The notes under the pieces are model-generated. The model searched no databases. It was not told the origin of the DNA and worked only from the letters and a program-made list of their open reading frames with translations. A program made the position numbers and the translations under genes. Positions 1-23,664 of a stretch of 64,000 bases of DNA are shown piece by piece. The DNA is from Verrucomicrobiia bacterium (GTDB lineage Bacteria; Verrucomicrobiota; Verrucomicrobiia; Limisphaerales; UBA11358), in assembly GCA_049280815.1 (NCBI GenBank), contig JBAPQW010000087.1, positions 2,522-66,521 of the forward strand, written 5' to 3'. Each line of letters starts with the position of its first letter. Within the stretch, counting starts at the first letter, position 1.

Positions 1-1648
1 ACACGGACGGCTTTACGGCGTCTTCGAGCGGTTTTTTGATGAGGTGCGCAATAAATATGACCGCACCTTGCAGATCGCCATGCGGCACCGCCGCGCCACC
101 GTCATCCTGTCGCTGGGGATTTTTATTGCGACGCTGTTTTTGTTTGTGATCATACCGAAAGGATTTTTTCCCGACGAAGACACCGGCCAGATCTTTGCCA
201 TCACCGAGGCATCCCAGGACATTTCTTTCGATGCGATGAAAGCGCATCAGCAGGCCGCGGCGAAAATTGTCGCCGCCGACCCGAACGTGGATGGATTCAT
301 GTCCGCCATCGGCGCGGGCGGTTCGTCCGCCAGCCTGAACAACGGACGCATGTTCATGCGCCTGAAGCCCGCCTCGGAACGCAAATTAAATGCGAATCAG
401 ATCATTCAGGAACTCCGCGTCAAGCTGTCACAAATTCCCGGGTTCAATGTTTACATGCAAAATCCGCCGCTCATCCGGGTCGGCGGCCAGTTGACCAAGG
501 CGTTGTATCAATACAGTTTGCAGGATACTGACACCAAGGAGCTTTTCCATTGGGTGCCCATTCTGATGGCCAAGATGGCGGCGCAGACCAATCTGCTTCA
601 GGACGTGACGAGCGACCTGCAAATTGCCAATCCCCAGGTCAACGTTGAAATTGACCGCGACAAAGCCGCCGCCCTCGGGGTCACGCCGGAGCAAATTGAA
701 AACGGGCTTTATGACGCCTACGGGGAACGCCAGTCGTCCACCATCTATGGCGACGTGGCCGAATACTGGGTGGTTTTTGAGGTCGAACCGCAATTCCAGC
801 TCGATCCGGACGCACTCGCGCAACTTTACATCACCAGTTCATTCACCGGGACGAACGGCGCGCCCAAACTGATTCCGTTGAGCGCCGTCGCCAAGTTGAC
901 CCGCAATATCGGGCCGACCAGCATTTCGCATGTCGGGCAACTGCCGTCCGCGACCATCTCCTTCAACCTCGCCCCCGGCATGTCCCTCGGCACCGCCGTC
1001 GAACAAGTTCAAAAAATAGAAAGCGACCTGCACCTGCCCGCGACCATCTCCGGCAGTTTTCAAGGCTCGGCGGCGGTTTTCCAATCGTCGGTCAAAGGGC
1101 TCGGCCTGTTGCTCATCGCCTCCATCATCGTCATCTATATCATTCTTGGAATTCTTTACGAAAGTTTCATTCATCCGCTGACCATTCTGTCCGGCCTGCC
1201 GTCGGCGGGTTTCGGCGCACTGCTGACACTGATGCTTTTTCGCCTCGACCTGAACATCTACGGCTTCGTCGGCCTCATCATGCTCGTCGGCATCGTGAAA
1301 AAAAACGCCATCATGATGATTGACTTCGCCATTGAAGCGCAGCGGAGCGGAAAATCCGCCGCCGAAGCGATTCACGAAGGCTGCCTGCTGCGGTTCCGCC
1401 CGATCATGATGACCACGATGGCCGCGCTCATGGCCACGCTGCCCATTGCGCTGGGCCTCGGCGCGGGCGGTGCCTCCCGAAAATCCCTCGGCCTCACCGT
1501 CGTCGGCGGACTGGTGGTGTCGCAATGCCTGACGCTCTACATCACACCGGTGGTTTATCTTTACCTCGAAGGATTCCACCAATGGTTCTTGCGCCAGCGC
1601 ACCAAGCGCGCGGCTATGCAAACGGGCATCAAGCCGGCAGCGGCGTGA
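1..1648 (+). CDS. RND-family efflux transporter permease (AcrB/MdtB-like), 5'-truncated by window edge
   Basis: Frame 2 is open from nt 2 (HGRLYGVFERFFDEVRNKYDRTL...) to the stop at 1646-1648. The translation shows a periplasmic loop followed by a C-terminal TM bundle, with RND-typical strings GLIMLVGIVKKNAIMMIDFA and RFRPIMMTTMAALMATLPIALG. Confidence 0.9.
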   Translation, partial: HGRLYGVFERFFDEVRNKYDRTLQIAMRHRRATVILSLGIFIATLFLFVIIPKGFFPDEDTGQIFAITEASQDISFDAMKAHQQAAAKIVAADPNVDGFMSAIGAGGSSASLNNGRMFMRLKPASERKLNANQIIQELRVKLSQIPGFNVYMQNPPLIRVGGQLTKALYQYSLQDTDTKELFHWVPILMAKMAAQTNLLQDVTSDLQIANPQVNVEIDRDKAAALGVTPEQIENGLYDAYGERQSSTIYGDVAEYWVVFEVEPQFQLDPDALAQLYITSSFTGTNGAPKLIPLSAVAKLTRNIGPTSISHVGQLPSATISFNLAPGMSLGTAVEQVQKIESDLHLPATISGSFQGSAAVFQSSVKGLGLLLIASIIVIYIILGILYESFIHPLTILSGLPSAGFGALLTLMLFRLDLNIYGFVGLIMLVGIVKKNAIMMIDFAIEAQRSGKSAAEAIHEGCLLRFRPIMMTTMAALMATLPIALGLGAGGASRKSLGLTVVGGLVVSQCLTLYITPVVYLYLEGFHQWFLRQRTKRAAMQTGIKPAAA

Positions 1649-1713
1649 TTTCCAGATTGTGTCACGCAGACCTTCCTGGGATCGCCAGCGCTCCCAGGTT
1701 TGCATTGCGAGTT

Positions 1714-3684
1714 TCAATTCAACGCGGCCGCTTCCACCTCGGTCACCTGGGGAATGTCCGTGACCTTGAGCACGCCCAGGTAATCTGGGCCTTCCATCTG
1801 CGATTGGGGCAGGTCTTCGAGATCCAGTTTGCGCACGCCCGTTTCGAACAGCGCGGCGTAAAGCGCGTTGACGCCCATGGAACCTTCGGCATGGAGTTTG
1901 ATTTTCGCCGCTCCCAGCCCGGGCAAGGCGGAAAGCACCTGCACCGCGCGGCGGATGTCCCACACCCGCATTCCGTCCAGGGTCTGGCCAAGCAGCATGA
2001 AACGGCGCCGGATCTTCGTCAGACGATCGTCCCCGCCCGACCACGCCGTGAGCCCAACGCCGCGCGGGGCCAAAAACCCAAGGGCCACGCGCTGGTCCAG
2101 CAATTCGCGTTGCCAGGCCTCAAACACGGCTGAATGGCTCGCCAACACGTCTCCACTGGCAAGTTCCTCCGTCAGCGCACCGCCGAATTCCGTGTTCATC
2201 GTGGCCAGCCAGTTGGTCCAACCAGTGGGATCAAGCACGCTGATTTCAACCTGCTCCGCCGGTTTCACCGCCGCGCTTTCGAGGAGGTAGAGCCGCAGGG
2301 AAACGTCGTGCTGGCTGGTGAAATCCCACGCGCTGAAACGGAGGCCGGCCCGCTCGACCGCAAAGGCGCGTATCGGTTCCAGCGGCGCCCCCTCGTCCGG
2401 CCAGCCCGCAAAGACTTTTTCCCGCAGCGCGGCGCGGAGTTCGGCGGCGGACTTCTTTTCCGGTTTGGCCAGCGGCACAAAGGTGTCCGCAATGTTGGTG
2501 TTGATCGAGTTGGTCGGCAGGGTATCAAACACCCTGAGTGATTCGGGCGGAAAGAACTTTTTGGCGGCGGTCTCCACGGGCCTTTCCGCACCCTTGAGCT
2601 GGCGGTTGAACCAGCGCAGGGTGGCTAGTTGCAATTCCGGGGTTTCGCTGTGCAGTCCGGGCGCCACCGCGAGGCCGAGTTGGTTGGAGGCGCCGTAAAG
2701 CCCATAAATACGCCGGACCTGCTCATAAATGCGCAGCGTGCTGGACAGCGGAAAAAGAGGGTCCTGGTCGGTGCCGCCAATCAGGAGCGGCCGCGGCGCC
2801 GCCAGGGCGGCGACCTGGGGAAAATCCCAGCGGTAGATGTTGATGAAGAAATTGCAATCACAGTGGCCGTCGATGACGCCGTCGAGCAGGTGGCTTTGCA
2901 CATCGGCCATGCCGGCCAGCGGCGCGGCCGCCTTGATGCGGTCGTCAAGGGCAGTGATGGTCCAGCTGTATGCGCCGCCGCCGGAATGTCCGGTGATGCC
3001 GAACCGGTTGGTGTCCACCTCCGGCCGCGTGCAGAGATAATCCAGCGCGCGAATGCCGAACCACGCCTCGACCCCTCCCGGCGTGTAACCGCGCGAGTTC
3101 CACCACCACAGGCCGTGGTTGCGCGTGCCGGTATGGATGCCCTCAATTTCGCCCGCCAGTAGCGTGTCCAACACCAGGCAGACGTAACCATTGCGGGCGT
3201 ACCACGCACCGTCGGACTGGTAAATCGCCTTGTTACCCAGACTCATGCCATTCGTCACAGCCCGGACGTGGCCGCATTCGTAAAGAATGGCCGGCGCGCG
3301 ATTGGTCAGGTTTTTGGGCAGGTACAAACTGGCCGTGCAGTAAAGGTCCGGAGACGCCTGAAAATAAATTTTCTCGACCGTGAAGCCGTCATTCGTAAGA
3401 CGCCCGGTGACCACCGGTTGGAGATCCGTCAGTTCCGGCATCGGCCACAACCCGAGCATCTCCTGCAATTGCCGGCGGTATTCGCCGCGCTTGGCCTTCC
3501 ATTCGTCCAGCGTGCGGATGTCCGCCAAACAACGCTGCGACAGCGCGGCTGTTTCGAAGCGAAAATAATCGGCGAGCCTGGCATCCCCGGGCGTGGGTTT
3601 GCCGGCGAGCCTGGGAATCTGTGCCTCGCCGGACAGAAATGTCCCCAATAGCAACGTCATCAGCAGAAGGGTCGCGCGCTGCAT
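1714..3684 (-). CDS. Secreted alpha/beta-hydrolase (acetyl-xylan-esterase / dienelactone-hydrolase-like)
   Basis: Long ORF. The likely start is M13 (MQRATLLLMTLLLGTFLSGEAQ), which gives a signal peptide. Nucleophile elbow GHSGGG (GxSxG). The N-terminal region resembles AXE1-type esterases. The family call is from motif recognition only. Confidence 0.75.
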   Translation of the reverse strand: MQRATLLLMTLLLGTFLSGEAQIPRLAGKPTPGDARLADYFRFETAALSQRCLADIRTLDEWKAKRGEYRRQLQEMLGLWPMPELTDLQPVVTGRLTNDGFTVEKIYFQASPDLYCTASLYLPKNLTNRAPAILYECGHVRAVTNGMSLGNKAIYQSDGAWYARNGYVCLVLDTLLAGEIEGIHTGTRNHGLWWWNSRGYTPGGVEAWFGIRALDYLCTRPEVDTNRFGITGHSGGGAYSWTITALDDRIKAAAPLAGMADVQSHLLDGVIDGHCDCNFFINIYRWDFPQVAALAAPRPLLIGGTDQDPLFPLSSTLRIYEQVRRIYGLYGASNQLGLAVAPGLHSETPELQLATLRWFNRQLKGAERPVETAAKKFFPPESLRVFDTLPTNSINTNIADTFVPLAKPEKKSAAELRAALREKVFAGWPDEGAPLEPIRAFAVERAGLRFSAWDFTSQHDVSLRLYLLESAAVKPAEQVEISVLDPTGWTNWLATMNTEFGGALTEELASGDVLASHSAVFEAWQRELLDQRVALGFLAPRGVGLTAWSGGDDRLTKIRRRFMLLGQTLDGMRVWDIRRAVQVLSALPGLGAAKIKLHAEGSMGVNALYAALFETGVRKLDLEDLPQSQMEGPDYLGVLKVTDIPQVTEVEAAALN

Positions 3685-5892: not shown

Positions 5893-6209
5893 GGTCTGTT
5901 TTCCGGTGTGGTTACCATGCAAAATCCAGGCTGAACAACGCCCAAGAAAGCCAGTGCGTCCACTGCCTCAGGCCTTGATTCTTAAGGTTATATTAACACA
6001 ACCGCCCGGTGCTGCAGAAATAATTTTTATAAAAACTTATCCTCAAAATTACTAAACTGTTTTCCCACAGGAAGATACCGGCCATGGCAATTCATCCCCA
6101 ACCGGTTCGCATCCGTTCCCGCAGTGCCCAGCAAATGTGCCGTCCGAATGGGGCGGGGATGAAGAACGACATCTTTCGCTGCCTTGAAGCGATCCGCCGG
6201 CTCCGGCCA

Positions 6210-8060
6210 TCACGCGGGCGGGGTCGTCTCGCTTTGCAAGACCACGTAGAAGGTGCAGCCCTGGCCAGGTGGGCTTCTCACTCCGATGCGGCCGCCATGG
6301 GACACGGTGATTTCCCGGGCGATGGACAGCCCCAGCCCGGCACCGGTCTTGGTCTGGCCGGGCACCCGGAAAAAGCGGTCAAAAATCCGGGTATGATATT
6401 CCGCCGGAATGCCCGGACCCTGGTCAGTGACCCGGAATTCGATCCCATGGTCCGCGACCGGCGTGGCGCTCAGAACAATTCGGCCATTGAGGGACGAATA
6501 CTTGACGGCATTGGAGATGAGGTTGGTGAAAACATGGTTGATGCGCTGCCGGTCCACGGAAACGGCGGGCAGATCCGGCCGCACCTTGAAATCCACCTGG
6601 AGATTCTTGGTTGAAATCTTATCGGCCAGTTCCTTCGCCGCCCCGGCCAGCAATTCGGACGGAGAAACGGGTTCGCGGCGCAATTCGGCATTGCCTTCCT
6701 CCAACCGGGCGAGGTCGAGCAGGTCGTTCAAAATTCGCAACAGCCGTTCGGTGTCGCTCCGGGCCGCCGAGAGCAGTTCGGCCTGTTTGGGGGTGAGCGT
6801 CCCGACGGTTTTTTCGAGCAGGATATGCAGACCCATCCGGACACTGGTCAGGGGGCTCTTCAATTCGTGGCTGACCGTCGCGACGAGGTTGGTCTTGGTG
6901 GCATCCAGCAGGCGGAAGCGGGTGACGTCATACAAAACCACCGCCACCCCCAGCAGGGCGTCCTCCTTGCTCCGCATGGCCAGGATGCGCGGCAGGAAAA
7001 ACTTGTCCTCGCCGCGAATGCGATAGGTGATCGCTTCCTTGAAACTGTGGGGGAGGAAATTTTCCCCGCTGGCGAGGGTGTTCCGGGCGATGGCCTGCAA
7101 CCGGTCGGGCAACTGGACCTCCAATTGCAGGCTGGACATCAGACCATCCGCCGCCGGGTTCTTCAATTCGATGCGTCCCTCCTGGTCCAGGACGAAAATG
7201 GGGTCCGGAAACGATGCGAGCGTCGTTTCCATCGTGCGATGCAGGCGGACGATTTTTTCCGTGGTGCTCTGGCGATATTCCTGGAGTTGGGCCGCCATTT
7301 TGTTGAAGGCCAGGGCCAGTTCCCCCAGCTCGTCCCGGGTGGTGACCGGCACGGGCTGGTCGAGTTTGCCTTCGCCCAATTCCCGGGTCGCCCGGGTCAG
7401 CAGTTGAATCGGCTGCAGGATCGAGCGGCTGAGCTGATAACCGGCATAGGCGGAAATCAACAGCGCGACGACCGTGCCGAAAATCATGAGCCGCGTCATC
7501 TCCCGCGTGATGGTCCGGATGTTCTGGCTGGTGGCCAGGATGGCCTTGTGGTTCAGGTCATGGACCTTCTCCAGCAGCAGGTTGATCATCTGTCCGTTGG
7601 CGACCAGATCCCGTTCATAAACCAGCCGCTGGTTTTCCGGGGAATCCAGGGTGCTGATGGTGTCGACCGCCTTCAGGAAAGCCTGGTAATTGGTCGCCAC
7701 CTGCTGGCTCAGGTCCGTTTCACCGGGCAGCGTGCTGGCGTTGAGCAGCAAATCCAGGTTTTCATCGAAGCGCCGCTTGTTTTGATTGAAGGCTTTTTGG
7801 TCAATTTTGCGCTTGGGGTATACCAGCAGGTTGTTTTTATCGCCGGCACCCGATCCGGCCACCACCCAGGACACCTCCCGATCCATTCCCGCCAGGGCCA
7901 GACTCATCGCCGAGGCCGCCGTAAAACTCTGGTAATTGTTCGTCACCGTGGCGTCGACGGTGTTGGCCAGGCGCTCAAAGAGCACGATGGCATAAGCGCC
8001 CCCCGCCAGCAGAATGACGACGAATGGCGTCAGGTAAAGAAACAACCGGGTGCGTAACAT
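6210..8060 (-). CDS. Sensor histidine kinase (TM-sensor, HAMP, PAS-like, HisKA, HATPase_c)
   Basis: N-terminal TM helix. HAMP segment LGELALAFNKMAAQL. H-box VATVSHELKSPLTSV. G-boxes TDQGPGIP and GAGLGLSIAREI. It lies 14 nt downstream of an NtrC-type regulator on the same strand. Confidence 0.9.
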   Translation of the reverse strand: MLRTRLFLYLTPFVVILLAGGAYAIVLFERLANTVDATVTNNYQSFTAASAMSLALAGMDREVSWVVAGSGAGDKNNLLVYPKRKIDQKAFNQNKRRFDENLDLLLNASTLPGETDLSQQVATNYQAFLKAVDTISTLDSPENQRLVYERDLVANGQMINLLLEKVHDLNHKAILATSQNIRTITREMTRLMIFGTVVALLISAYAGYQLSRSILQPIQLLTRATRELGEGKLDQPVPVTTRDELGELALAFNKMAAQLQEYRQSTTEKIVRLHRTMETTLASFPDPIFVLDQEGRIELKNPAADGLMSSLQLEVQLPDRLQAIARNTLASGENFLPHSFKEAITYRIRGEDKFFLPRILAMRSKEDALLGVAVVLYDVTRFRLLDATKTNLVATVSHELKSPLTSVRMGLHILLEKTVGTLTPKQAELLSAARSDTERLLRILNDLLDLARLEEGNAELRREPVSPSELLAGAAKELADKISTKNLQVDFKVRPDLPAVSVDRQRINHVFTNLISNAVKYSSLNGRIVLSATPVADHGIEFRVTDQGPGIPAEYHTRIFDRFFRVPGQTKTGAGLGLSIAREITVSHGGRIGVRSPPGQGCTFYVVLQSETTPPA

Positions 8061-20288: not shown

Positions 20289-20731
20289 GAACCAAAAAAT
20301 TCTAAAACGGGTGCCAGCGGTTTGCAATGGCGGAACGCAAATGAAAGGCTGGTCATGGCGCCCCGCCTTTTGGTAAACGCCACCTAACGCTGCATTGCGA
20401 GTTGCCCATGGCCCACGACGCCATAACCATCGATTACCCCAAAAATCACGAGCCCGCCATTCCCCTGCTGGCAACTCCTTTGTATCAAAAGTGGAGACCG
20501 GTCCATGACCGGGCGCAAACGCCCCTTGCTGACGTAGTCAGATCCTATGCACAAAGGGTCAAAAAACTCGATCATGCAAAGGGAGTTGCATCGTTGATAT
20601 TAATGCAATTCTGCAAATGTCCAAATAATGGACACAGCCGTGAGACAAAGCTTCTTGACTTATGGCCGGAATAATTGCAAAACAGTGGAAAATCCAGAAC
20701 GATGGGTGAAGAAATTGGGAGTTAGGAGTTT

Positions 20732-20917
20732 ATGAGTCGAATAACTGGTCAGGTTTGTAATGTTTCCGGAGTATACCGTGCGGTTGGTAACTGTGGTCAT
20801 TCCGTTGAGCGGGCTATTCCCGAAGGACAAGTGTTTCCACCCTGTGAATATTGCCGGGAACGGGGTGATCGCAAAGACATCACCTGGGTCTTGGTGGTGG
20901 AAACTCAAGCCATGTAG
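20732..20917 (+). CDS. Small Cys-rich (zinc-ribbon-like) protein
   Basis: 61 aa with C-x12-C...C-x2-C (CNVSGVYRAVGNCGH...FPPCEYC). GGAG-type RBS (gggagttaggagtttATG). Low-GC surroundings. Confidence 0.45.
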   Translation: MSRITGQVCNVSGVYRAVGNCGHSVERAIPEGQVFPPCEYCRERGDRKDITWVLVVETQAM

Positions 20918-21186
20918 TCGCCCACCCAGATTTCCGACCAACCCGCCCAGGGCGTTGGCCGGTCTTCAACAAAGCGCCGCTGACGTTCGGCCATCTTCAC
21001 CAATCGGGTTGCGTTCATGGCCAGGCAGAGAGTCTGAAATCGTTGTCCTGTTTTGAGTCGCTGCCGGAACATTTGCCATTCAACTCCGAGAGCGAAGGCC
21101 ACTTCTGAGCTGACTCCATTTAACGAACTTCCGTCCGTATTAAACGGTTCAACCAAGTCAAAATCACCTTCGTCCATTTCCTTCAT
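20905..21186 (-). CDS. Hypothetical protein
   Basis: 93-aa ORF convergent with the zinc-ribbon ORF. Balanced amino-acid composition. No recognisable motif. Confidence 0.35.
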   Translation of the reverse strand: MKEMDEGDFDLVEPFNTDGSSLNGVSSEVAFALGVEWQMFRQRLKTGQRFQTLCLAMNATRLVKMAERQRRFVEDRPTPWAGWSEIWVGDYMA

Positions 21187-21397
21187 TCGCCCGGCTAAAA
21201 AGCAAGAACCGTGCTAAGGCTGGCTGGAACGGTCTTTTATTAGGTGACTTTTCAAATCATGCCCATTATGGGATATTGCCTGATTTTAACCTGGTGCGCG
21301 CAAGGCCGCTCCAAATCGGGGACTACTCACACAACGCGGTAATTTCCTGATCCGAGCAGGTGGAAAGCGGAGCCATGCTCAGTGCTCTGGCAAATTA

Positions 21398-21422
21398 GGG
21401 GGATTATATACTTGACTCACCA
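21398..21422. repeat. Left terminal inverted repeat of the IS1595-type element
   Basis: GGGGGATTATATACTTGACTCACCA, the reverse complement of 23492-23516 with one mismatch. Confidence 0.8.
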
Positions 21423-21446
21423 TAGGCTTTATGCGATATTTGGGGC

Positions 21447-22415
21447 ATGAAGAACGACAACGAGTTTCCCGAGACGCTGGCAAGCGCGATTAAATACTTC
21501 TCTGACGCCGACAAGGCGTTGCAGTTCATGGTTTCGATTCGCTGGCCTGACGGCAATGTGGTTTGCCCTTGCTGCCAGAAGTCCAACGTCGCCTTCCTTG
21601 AGACGCGCAAAATTTGGAAGTGCCGGGACACCAAGAAACAATTCTCCGTCAAGGTCGGCACCATTTTCGAGGACAGTCCCCTTGGTCTGGACAAATGGCT
21701 TCCCGCTTTCTGGATGATTGTAAACGCCAAAAATGGAATCAGTTCGTGTGAACTTGGCCGCGCCTTGGGTGTCACCCAAAAGACCGCATGGTTCATGCTT
21801 CACCGTATCCGGCTGGCGATGCAGAACGGCAGCATGGACAAACTTTCCGGCGAAGTGGAAGCGGACGAAACCTATATCGGCGGCAAGGCTCGCAGCATGA
21901 ACAATGCACAGCGCAGCAAGCGCGGTCGCGGAACTGGCGGTACTGGCAAAGAAATTGTCATGGGACTTTTGCAGCGGGGCGGAAAAATCAAATTGAAGCA
22001 CGTTGCAAAAGCTCGTCGCAATATCCTTCAAGCCGAAATTCGCCAGCAAGTTGAAACTGGCTCGCAGGTGTTCACCGATGCGCTTCCCTCGTACAATGGT
22101 TTGAGTCAGGATTACGTCCATGCAGCGATTGACCACGCGAAGGAATATGTTCGCGGCAATGTCCACACCAACGGGCTTGAAAACTTCTGGAGCCTGCTCA
22201 AGCGCGGGATTCGCGGGACATATATCAGCGTTGAACCTTTTCATTTGTTTCGTTACCTCGACGAACAGGCTTTCCGTTTCAACGAGCGCGAGAACACTGA
22301 TTCCGGCAGATTCCTGAAAGGCATCATCGGCATCATCGGTCGTAGGCTCCAGTACGCCAAACTCATTGGCGAACAAAGCAGATTTGCGACGTCAGGGGCG
22401 TGGCAAGCGGCGTAA
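21447..22415 (+). CDS. IS1595-family DDE transposase
   Basis: N-terminal transposase zinc-ribbon (RWPDGNVVCPCC...WKC). HTH (SSCELGRALGVTQKTAWFMLHRIR). DDE region strings EADETYIGG, VFTDALPSYNGL and HTNGLENFWSLLKRG. Confidence 0.92.
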   Translation: MKNDNEFPETLASAIKYFSDADKALQFMVSIRWPDGNVVCPCCQKSNVAFLETRKIWKCRDTKKQFSVKVGTIFEDSPLGLDKWLPAFWMIVNAKNGISSCELGRALGVTQKTAWFMLHRIRLAMQNGSMDKLSGEVEADETYIGGKARSMNNAQRSKRGRGTGGTGKEIVMGLLQRGGKIKLKHVAKARRNILQAEIRQQVETGSQVFTDALPSYNGLSQDYVHAAIDHAKEYVRGNVHTNGLENFWSLLKRGIRGTYISVEPFHLFRYLDEQAFRFNERENTDSGRFLKGIIGIIGRRLQYAKLIGEQSRFATSGAWQAA

Positions 22416-22416
22416 A

Positions 22417-22566
22417 TCATAGGCTGCGGCGCTTTGCTTTTCTGGCCTTTTGGTATTGTTGTTCCCGCCGATCAATTTCGGCTTTCGGGACTGATACTAT
22501 TTCCTTCGTGAATTGATGGAATTTTTCAAATGGAGTTGCTCTTTCTGGACTCGACTCTTTTTTCAT
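22417..22566 (-). CDS. Small basic protein (49 aa), passenger ORF inside the IS
   Basis: MKKESSPERATPFEKFHQFTKEIVSVPKAEIDRREQQYQKARKAKRRSL. It starts 13 nt after the stop of the upstream Rx4H-protein ORF, and its stop abuts the transposase stop. The upstream part of the 120-aa ORF-track frame overlaps the preceding gene and is discounted. Confidence 0.4.
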   Translation of the reverse strand: MKKESSPERATPFEKFHQFTKEIVSVPKAEIDRREQQYQKARKAKRRSL

Positions 22567-22579
22567 CGTATGGTGATTT

Positions 22580-23428
22580 CTAAGGTTTCTTGGCGACTTG
22601 GGCCAGAGCAGCAGATAAACCGGGCTGTGCGGGTTGTGAGGGATTGGCCTGTGACATAGCCAACACCATTTGGACAATTGCACTGCAAGCAGCACCCAGC
22701 AAAACCACAGCATCATCGGATGAAAGCATTTCCTCTGGGTGAAGAATTGGATTGCGATATTCTTCTCGAATATGTTCAAGAAATGCGGTTATTTTTTTAT
22801 CAGCACCCGCCGTGTTCAGATTTAAGATATAGCTACCCCAGTTCCGCAGCTTGGCCTTCGGCGGGTGGCCGATGACAAACGTATAGTAAGCACGGATTAC
22901 CGATTCTGTGCCCCTAAGGATGTGAAATGCGGCCGCAGTCGGAATATCAAAGGCGATGCATTTCCCAGCTTGTCGGATGTCAGCAATACATTGCCTCGGG
23001 AGGGCCTTCCGAACCATTTCCGGGAAAAGATTTTCCGGGCGCTCAATTAAGTCTGTTGTCGAGTAAATCAATTTTTGAGACACAAAATAACTTGCGAGGG
23101 TCTGAAGTTCGGCGGAAAACACCGTCTCAAATTCAGTTAGGCTATTCGTAATATTATAAGCCTCCAAAAAGCTTATGGTTTTATTGAAATCTAACTCTTT
23201 CCCTTCGGACGGTTCTGTAACTGCATTTATGGCATTGAGAAGTTTCCAGGCGGTGGGCCTGCAAACAATCATTGGAATTAACCCGTCGTTACAAACTGTC
23301 TCTAGCCAATCTTTGGCCATAAAAAGTTTGTAATACACGTTTTTTAGAACGTCCTTTTCTTGAACGCTCTGGAGCGGATGAAGCACCGTCCCCAAACTGT
23401 AAAATTGATAAAGATTTACTGTTTTCAT
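22580..23428 (-). CDS. HEPN-like (Rx4H motif) protein, passenger gene inside the IS
   Basis: Start taken at ATG 23428 (MKTVNLYQF...), because the ORF-track start at 23518 lies beyond the right terminal inverted repeat (IRR). The C-terminal helical region contains EHIREEYRNPILHPEE, that is R-N-x3-H, the HEPN RNase signature also seen in Abi_2/AbiD-F-type proteins. GC is low (23 G+C in the 60 nt at 23101-23160). Confidence 0.6.
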   Translation of the reverse strand: MKTVNLYQFYSLGTVLHPLQSVQEKDVLKNVYYKLFMAKDWLETVCNDGLIPMIVCRPTAWKLLNAINAVTEPSEGKELDFNKTISFLEAYNITNSLTEFETVFSAELQTLASYFVSQKLIYSTTDLIERPENLFPEMVRKALPRQCIADIRQAGKCIAFDIPTAAAFHILRGTESVIRAYYTFVIGHPPKAKLRNWGSYILNLNTAGADKKITAFLEHIREEYRNPILHPEEMLSSDDAVVLLGAACSAIVQMVLAMSQANPSQPAQPGLSAALAQVAKKP

Positions 23429-23491
23429 ATCCGTTTCCCCCACACTGACAAATAATGCCTTGGGGGGAATACATGGATAATCCACCGCCCT

Positions 23492-23516
23492 TGGTGAGTC
23501 AAGTGTATAATCCCCC
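23492..23516. repeat. Right terminal inverted repeat of the IS1595-type element
   Basis: TGGTGAGTCAAGTGTATAATCCCCC. Confidence 0.8.
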
Positions 23517-23588
23517 AAATTAGGGCACTACCCGCCACGCGGCGAACTTGACGGATGCGCGCAATCGACATAGCCTGTTTACCCGGCT

Positions 23589-23664
23589 GGTGGTCGTAGC
23601 TCAACGGTAGAGTCCAAGCTTGTGGAGCTTGTTGTTGCGGGTTCGAATCCCGTCGGCCACCCCA
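23589..23664 (+). tRNA. tRNA-His (anticodon GTG) with encoded G-1 and CCA
   Basis: Manual fold. G-1 is present. Acceptor GTGGTCG pairs with CGGCCAC. D-arm GCTC-AACGGTA-GAGT. Anticodon stem CAAGC/GCTTG with loop TTGTGGA (GTG). Variable loop TTGTT. T-arm GCGGG-TTCGAAT-CCCGT. Discriminator C, then CCA. Confidence 0.93.

Follow-up and report, generated by a model that had tools for sequence, protein, structure and literature searches.

A 64,000-nt stretch of contig JBAPQW010000087.1 of a Verrucomicrobiia bacterium (assembly GCA_049280815.1), below called the window, contains an insertion sequence (IS) of the IS1595 family. The element is 2,117 bp long (positions 21399-23515) and holds a transposase gene, a 49-aa open reading frame (ORF) and a 282-aa ORF encoding a predicted protein of the HEPN superfamily. 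The best explanation, to which we assign a probability of roughly 0.6, is that this is a transporter IS carrying a self-contained, sensor-gated abortive-infection or toxic RNase as swappable cargo. The first-pass annotation had accurately described the 282-aa ORF with its R-N-x3-H motif and the 49-aa Lys/Arg-rich ORF 13 nt downstream, and had interpreted them as mobile cargo, an HEPN protein of the Abi_2/AbiD-F type and its possible partner. The HEPN domain and the mobile cargo are upheld by the analysis below, whereas the Abi_2/AbiD-F membership and the partnership are not.

All three genes are enclosed by a pair of 35-nt inverted repeats (IRs; pair I1, 89% complementary). The left terminal IR (GGGGATTATATACTTGACTCACC..., 29 nt) occupies 21399..21427 on the plus strand, and the right one (...GGTGAGTCAAGTGTATAATCCCC, 29 nt, found by inverted-repeat search) occupies 23487..23515 on the minus strand. 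Read directly, the element starts at 21399 with GGGGATTATATACTTGAC... and ends at 23515 with ...GTCAAGTGTATAATCCCC. The octamer CAAATTAG is present at 21391..21398 and at 23516..23523, the right copy matching the left one perfectly, as an 8-bp target-site duplication (TSD). Thus the three genes were inserted together as a 2,117-bp unit, and the earlier placement of the two ORFs inside an IS is correct. The insertion is 66 bp upstream of the tRNA-His gene (23590-23664). No second copy of the element was found in the 64-kb window. The GC content is 48.8% for the IS, 45.3% for the HEPN gene and 43.3% for the small ORF, compared to 59.1% for the whole window, in agreement with the low GC noted before.

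The transposase (322 aa, 21447..22415, plus strand) has an N-terminal zinc ribbon and matches Pfam DDE_Tnp_IS1595 (2.5e-41), Zn_ribbon_IS1595 (1.5e-10) and NCBIfam transpos_IS1595 (2.8e-55, score 187.5 with a cut-off of 75). It is convergent with the small ORF and directly adjoins it. GG-initiated IRs, the 8-bp target duplication and a DDE transposase with a zinc ribbon are all present, as in the IS1595 family. The IR end GGGGATTAT fits the ISfinder end ggnnatTAT of the ISNwi1 subgroup, to which the element may belong. The 8-bp TSD is a hallmark of the family (PMC8101967). Transporter ISs are ISs with passenger genes between the IRs (Siguier, Gagnevin & Chandler 2009, as cited in PMC3129680), and here the HEPN gene and the small ORF sit within both the IRs and the TSD. 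The window element resembles transporter ISs in all these features: zinc-ribbon DDE transposase, GG IRs, 8-bp TSD and passengers within the IRs.

The ends of the element contain promoter-like signals. The IR core ACTTGAC, kept in related loci, includes TTGAC(T), a -35-like hexamer that faces inward at each end of the element (TTGACT in the left IR). Upstream of the transposase, a promoter-like site at 21412-21440 combines the left-IR hexamer with an extended -10-like GATATT, while in the right-IR counterpart, upstream of the cargo, the -10 is poor. A hairpin of -27.3 kcal/mol (z = -1.9; 10 of 200 shuffled sequences fold equally well) may form in the 5' leader of the HEPN gene (23420-23500, minus strand), in which UUCCCCCC is paired with the Shine-Dalgarno-like GGGGGAA. 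This hairpin could limit translation of the cargo, although the signal is modest. The Rfam search of the IS and eight related loci yielded nothing except tRNA.

The cargo gene (22580..23428, minus strand) starts from the ATG at 23428, as indicated by alignment of homologues. A 312-aa TTG-initiated version was rejected: its start lies within the IR, and homologues align from the ATG. The protein is near-neutral (pI 6.5). It contains EEYRNPILHPEE (in longer stretches, ...HIREEYRNPILHPEEML... and ...EHIREEYRNPILHPEEML...), where R225-N-P-I-L-H230, encoded at 22739..22756 on the minus strand, conforms to the R-x4-H catalytic signature of HEPN RNases. By word-index search, 160 full-length homologues were retrieved, none of them named. 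An exhaustive profile search produced 7,197 representatives at E <= 1e-3, 1,269 of them at E <= 1e-30. Conservation was analyzed in 134 representatives with 23-51% identity to the window protein. Three residues, H169, R225 and H230, do not vary in this set, and E107, K119, G155, C157, T164, F168, R172, E175, W197, N226 and P231 are conserved in at least 90% of sequences. Since both R225 and H230 are absolutely conserved, the RNPILH motif is not a chance match.

AlphaFold2 applied to a 40-sequence alignment gave an all-helical two-domain model of the full-length protein, with a mean predicted local distance difference test (pLDDT) score of 90.5. The Foldseek search with this model was not significant; the best local probabilities were for the HEPN domains of sacsin, TT1696 and RnlA, and Csx1, Csm6 and AbiA followed at lower probability. 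The C-terminal domain (residues 137-262; 22643..23020, minus strand) was therefore modelled alone, with pLDDT 93.8. The top 12 Foldseek matches of the domain model in PDB are all HEPN proteins, with probabilities of 0.91-1.00 and template modelling scores of 0.5-0.7. They include AF_0298 (2hsb), TT1696 (1ufb), sacsin (3o10), ST0689 (1wol), TM0613 (1o3u), 4nqf, 2q00, HepT (6m6u) and Dfer_2879 (3mfn). The modelled domain is a four-helix bundle with an extra helix (197-206) inserted between helices 2 and 3. The R-x4-H motif is placed at the end of helix 3 (223-228), and helix 4 starts at 237. Helix 2 (163-186) carries the pattern FH169xxR172xxE175. The motif position, the acidic residue in helix 2 (here E175) and the insert between helices 2 and 3 all agree with the published description of the superfamily (PMC3710099). 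Thus both the fold and the conservation of the catalytic residues, on which the HEPN proposal of the first-pass annotation depended, speak for it.

When the 134 relatives were scanned singly, 45 matched Pfam DUF4145 at E <= 0.1 (best 1.2e-6), eight matched HEPN (PF05168) and five matched Csm6_HEPN. Two relatives compared directly with DUF4145 (PF13643) scored about 17 bits, below the gathering score of 23.1, and the window protein itself had no match to this hidden Markov model at E <= 1. Abi_2 did not match the window protein and is not among the 25 families most often matched by the relatives. Thus, judging from profiles and the structural model, the C-terminal domain is a predicted member of the HEPN superfamily nearest to DUF4145, and not Abi_2. 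Abi_2 proteins (AbiD, AbiF) are similar in that they also belong to the HEPN superfamily, have R-x4-6-H motifs and follow single-gene abortive-infection logic. The DUF4145-like HEPN domains (PF13643; Anantharaman et al. 2013, PMC3710099) are the closest sequence family, and in both cases a variable N-terminal module precedes the HEPN domain. However, the window protein is below Pfam detection, its N-terminal domain is not among the listed fusion partners, and linkage to ISs is not described in that survey.

The N-terminal domain (residues 1-136; 23021..23428, minus strand) is all-helical, with DSSP helices 6-21, 28-46, 57-71 and 87-110, and is a candidate sensor or regulatory domain without a recognisable family. 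It has no match in Pfam or among PDB sequences. The possibility that it is a second, degenerate HEPN domain was rejected, as the hhalign probability was 2%. The profile of the entire family has only chance matches to PDB sequences, and Foldseek against viral structures (BFVD) found nothing. In PHROGs, the 282-aa protein matches phrog_32483 alone, a family of unknown function. One representative of the family, P0253 (1173 aa), appears to contain PilZ, alpha/beta hydrolase (Acyl_transf_2) and methyltransferase domains in addition to a full HEPN-like unit (match 903-1162). It could be a real multidomain protein or an artefact of gene calling or assembly.

The closest experimentally studied analog is RAZR/PD-T7-4, a single protein with a zinc-finger sensor and a DUF4145 HEPN domain. 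RAZR is inactive until phage ring proteins bind to it; its R and H residues are needed for defence, and RNA cleavage stops translation (PMC13017515). The window protein likewise has an N-terminal non-catalytic domain, a C-terminal DUF4145-type HEPN domain and no antitoxin gene, and may follow the same abortive-infection logic. This analogy favours the earlier suggestion of an N-terminal sensor. There are also differences. The N-terminal domain of the window protein is a 135-aa helical bundle without a Cys4 pattern, whereas RAZR has a Cys4 zinc ribbon. The motif is R-x4-H in the window protein and R146...H154 in RAZR, and PADLOC does not recognise the window protein as PD-T7-4 at E <= 1. By analogy with RAZR, the predicted HEPN RNase would be kept inactive by the N-terminal domain acting as a gate or sensor. 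A trigger such as phage infection would let HEPN domains pair into a composite active site, and the paired sites would cut cellular or phage RNA. The result would be growth arrest and abortive-infection-type defence, which would also favour retention of the IS.

That the HEPN gene is only one of many possible cargoes is seen from sister elements. The closest IS found (locus L095) has a transposase 84% identical to that of the window. The nucleotide identity is 81% over the left IR and transposase and 77% over the small ORF, and the IRs match too. The cargo regions, in contrast, have no similarity: L095 holds a different two-domain HEPN protein with the motif RDPIAH. The cargo was then surveyed in complete sister ISs and comprised 45 proteins of at least 140 aa. 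The commonest family is DUF3800 (eight proteins). Others include N6_N4 DNA methylases, one BglII nuclease, one Mrr nuclease, one RelA_SpoT and one SocA_Panacea protein (a toxSAS/Panacea pair), DUF4145, HEPN, DUF7689, NA-iREase1 and a trypsin-like protease. HEPN-family cargo was found in 5 of 34 complete ISs. All complete elements are at least 1.9 kb long and thus all carry cargo. Perfect 8-bp duplications flank 33 of 41 related cargo-bearing ISs, which means that the cargo-bearing units transpose whole. Most sister ISs with mixed cargo also carry the small ORF. The presence of restriction-modification, toxSAS/Panacea, DUF3800 and other HEPN genes in the same slot makes a role in defence or as a toxin, as proposed earlier, the most reasonable reading.

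Several observations concern individual sister elements. The TSDs of the clade do not look random, and many have the form C-(A/T)6-G: CAAATTAG (the window and L109), CTAAATAG, CAAAATAG, CTAATTTG and CCAATTAG (element ends in loci L008-L170). This suggests a preferred AT-rich, partly palindromic target. In type VII retrons, DUF3800 serves as the RNase H2-like effector (PMC7736814), and Weinberg et al. 2017 (PMC5737381) connected eleven unexplained RNA motifs with DUF3800 genes. The DUF3800 cargo genes in loci L082-L094 and L188-L193 are each followed by the same small basic ORF; a search of two of these loci, L082 and L090, for the Rfam DUF3800 RNA motifs gave none. Locus L010 contains a second IS of the same clade (1402-3361), 2.5 kb from the HEPN-bearing one. 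Its cargo is a 241-aa protein that appears membrane-anchored by eye and has no Pfam match; a 49-aa basic ORF, MKTTETQAETLDRLALDARKGASAAKRFETLVRRVAKTPTPAAKAKATK, comes next, and the genes all have the same orientation as the transposase. The sister subfamily of two-domain HEPN proteins occupies the same slot in L095 (5062-5970, minus strand) and L194 (1000-1932). It is characterized by the motifs NCLA..TAA..HLMR..E.GL and R-x4-H in the form RDPIAH or RRHLAH. The L194-type element was found in 89 collection blocks on contigs of at most 5 kb, the pattern expected of a multi-copy repeat at which assemblies break. In L188, a 266-aa ORF followed by a 58-aa ORF on the same strand lies beyond the IS transposase (5999-6990, minus strand); neither matches the HEPN, small-ORF or transposase profiles.

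The 49-aa ORF (MKKESSPERATPFEKFHQFTKEIVSVPKAEIDRREQQYQKARKAKRRSL; 22417..22566, minus strand) starts 13 nt past the stop codon of the HEPN gene, on the same strand. The encoded protein contains 14 Lys and Arg residues (pI 10.3) and has the motif TPFEKF..h..hhSVPKAEI followed by a Lys/Arg tail; the family pattern is (T)PFE[KR]F..h...hh.V[PS][KH].E[IL] plus the same tail. No family was found in Pfam, NCBIfam or a PDB profile search, and there is no similarity to nucleotidyltransferases. The name given to such proteins by JGI, "U3 small nucleolar ribonucleoprotein component", most likely reflects the Lys/Arg-rich tail and not homology. The family of the small ORF is large, with at least 1,551 protein clusters, about ten times the HEPN list produced by the same type of search. 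In four contexts that were looked up, the small ORF lies between a cargo gene of about 280-310 aa (DUF3800 in three cases and a divergent HEPN protein in one) and a convergent IS1595 transposase.

The distribution of the small ORF follows the transposase. Among HEPN loci, it is present in 13 of 29 that have a transposase and in none of 52 that do not (Fisher p = 1.8e-7). Among 80 metagenome loci selected by transposase similarity alone (54-84% identity), 55 contain it. For 34 elements (1.9-4.4 kb), the contig includes both IRs, and 29 of these elements have the small ORF between the IRs. It shares the strand of the transposase in 18 cases and has the reverse orientation in 11. Copies co-directional with the transposase often overlap its stop codon. 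At IS-linked HEPN loci the small ORF comes after the HEPN gene, often overlapping its stop codon (ATGA in several relatives), while in L010 its strand is opposite to that of the HEPN gene, and it follows the transposase and a 94-aa ORF. In the inspected layouts it appears as the last gene of either the transposase operon or the cargo operon. Since it tracks the transposase, accompanies unrelated cargo and lies on either strand, it is not specific for HEPN. These data argue strongly that the small ORF belongs to the IS backbone and is not a dedicated HEPN antitoxin, contrary to the earlier suggestion of a partner. The protein may be a nucleic-acid-binding accessory factor or regulator, encoded at the end of either convergent operon.

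The HEPN family was analyzed in 81 loci, 80 from a scan of one genome per species and one, L001, from a metagenome contig. An IS1595 transposase is present in the same locus, within about 3.6 kb, in 29 of them (36%). Usually it is convergent, as in the window, and sometimes it is upstream and co-directional. In seven of seven linked cases examined, IRs enclose both genes, and all seven have perfect 8-bp duplications. The 52 loci without a transposase all lack the small ORF as well. Their flanks contain 96 genes from 81 Pfam families, none of which is common to more than two loci; among the neighbours are ALAD, TGT, RNase P, Thy1, terminases, a resolvase and other transposases. Hence the neighbourhoods proposed earlier as a check give a mixed picture: the neighbours include assorted housekeeping genes, but none is conserved, a pattern consistent with a self-contained gene that moves horizontally, and one that speaks against a housekeeping operon. 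In the neighbor-joining tree, IS-linked members are intermixed with solo ones. The family is spread patchily over Acidobacteriota, Verrucomicrobiota, Proteobacteria, Planctomycetota and archaea, with low identities. Given the solo loci without a conserved neighbour, the interleaved tree and the members on viral contigs, the HEPN gene behaves as a self-sufficient, horizontally moved single gene, for which this IS clade is a frequent vehicle.

Three other explanations deserve consideration. One possibility is a two-gene toxin-antitoxin (TA) or addiction module stabilising the IS, in which the 49-aa protein neutralises an HEPN protein that is toxic at all times. Indeed, the genes are 13 nt apart on the same strand, the ATGA overlaps in several relatives suggest translational coupling, and TA pairs, including one HEPN-MNT pair, are known within Tn3-family transposons (PMC7157771). 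However, this explanation is unlikely, mainly because of the distribution of the small ORF: it is missing from all 52 transposase-less family loci; it accompanies DUF3800, a transmembrane protein and the varied cargo of sister ISs; its orientation differs between elements, being that of the transposase in 18 of the 29 complete ISs and the reverse in 11; and in L010 it is opposite to the HEPN gene. Besides, a basic peptide would be unusual as an antitoxin for a near-neutral protein. Known types of TA systems do not fit either. The type II HEPN-MNT arrangement was not found, as the IS has no MNT gene: besides the transposase and the HEPN protein, it encodes just the 49-aa protein. A type III (ToxIN-like) system was rejected, as the non-coding parts of the IS contain no tandem array and there is no Rfam match; the IS has four weak two-copy repeats of 9-13 nt, all within coding sequence. 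Compared with the TA modules of Tn3-family transposons, including HEPN-MNT in TnSod9 (PMC7157771), the window element similarly shows a conflict-type, predicted RNase gene in a transposon and repeated independent acquisitions. It differs in being an IS of about 2 kb without MNT or a recognisable antitoxin, and in that its cargo gene occurs alone in most genomes.

About equally improbable is a role outside defence, in which the HEPN-like protein processes or binds RNA as a housekeeping-like or regulatory factor and has hitch-hiked on some ISs. Many solo relatives do adjoin housekeeping genes such as ALAD, TGT, RNase P and Thy1, PADLOC recognises hardly any of the neighbours, and some HEPN families are regulatory or non-catalytic (PMC3710099). 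Yet a housekeeping role is hard to reconcile with the absence of a conserved operon partner and the patchy, mobile distribution over several phyla and archaea at low identities; moreover, 36% of the members are IS-borne, some are on viral contigs or in a PHROG, the catalytic R and H are invariant, and the same IS slot holds restriction-modification and TA genes. Finally, the cargo nuclease might serve the transposon itself, processing the transposase mRNA or a transposition RNA, with the small protein as its cofactor. The two commonest types of cargo, HEPN and RNase H-like DUF3800, are predicted RNA or RNA-DNA nucleases, and the association persists over deep divergence in three gene arrangements. 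However, near-identical backbones carry unrelated cargo (methylases, restriction enzymes, the toxSAS pair), which means that no particular cargo is needed for movement, and most members of the family have no IS nearby. This explanation is very improbable.

The preferred explanation, a transporter IS with a sensor-gated abortive-infection or toxic RNase as cargo, also has points against it. The 282-aa protein has no match in Pfam, NCBIfam or PADLOC (Pfam and PADLOC at E <= 1), and thus the PADLOC search proposed in the first-pass annotation gave no defence system for it. The Foldseek E-values of the domain model are modest, 0.02-0.35, despite the high probabilities. Some HEPN domains are binders without catalytic activity. 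Few relatives come from viral contigs (13 loci), and the small ORF may have a general cargo-silencing role. PADLOC matches only 3 of the 96 neighbours in solo loci, and because of this lack of a defence-island signal, overall confidence is moderate.

A bolder hypothesis, offered tentatively, is that this clade of IS1595 elements is a dedicated minimal shuttle for one- or two-gene immune or conflict effectors (HEPN, DUF3800, restriction-modification, toxSAS/Panacea), with a defined slot between the basic protein of about 50 aa and the right IR. The small protein could then be an undescribed IS factor that controls cargo or transposase expression where the convergent units meet, or else a generic silencer of toxic cargo. 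In that case the HEPN family would represent a novel abortive-infection system made of one protein, with a sensor domain that is also new.

Upstream of the IS, between it and a scpA-like gene, there is a region of about 1 kb with about 50% GC (20400-21390). Neither of its two small ORFs, a Cys-rich one of 61 aa (20732-20917, plus strand) and one of 93 aa (20905-21186, minus strand), matches any family. The region may be a remnant of an older insertion near tRNA-His.

HEPN RNases on mobile elements (PMC3710099) and IS1595 transporter ISs (Siguier et al. 2009, as cited in PMC3129680) were already known, and the nearest published parallel is the TA modules within Tn3-family transposons (PMC7157771). 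No description of the two-domain HEPN family was found in the searchable literature. The same holds for the conserved small basic backbone gene and for the spectrum of defence and conflict cargo in this clade, either of which may be recorded in Siguier et al. 2009 or in ISfinder/TnPedia. If the protein is an ordinary toxin or is inactive, the finding amounts to the correct annotation of a mobile element only.

With the gene of the small basic protein, the IS1595 family has a candidate for a new accessory gene. No Pfam, NCBIfam or PADLOC model covers the HEPN family, which numbers thousands of members, and there is now a clear hypothesis for it, that of a RAZR-like sensor-gated RNase. ISs of about 2 kb can carry genes of the conflict and defence type, in an apparent slot between the backbone and the right IR. 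Tn7-like transposons are carriers of defence genes, and a cargo slot in an IS would extend that case. It would likewise extend the case of Tn3-family transposons (PMC7157771).

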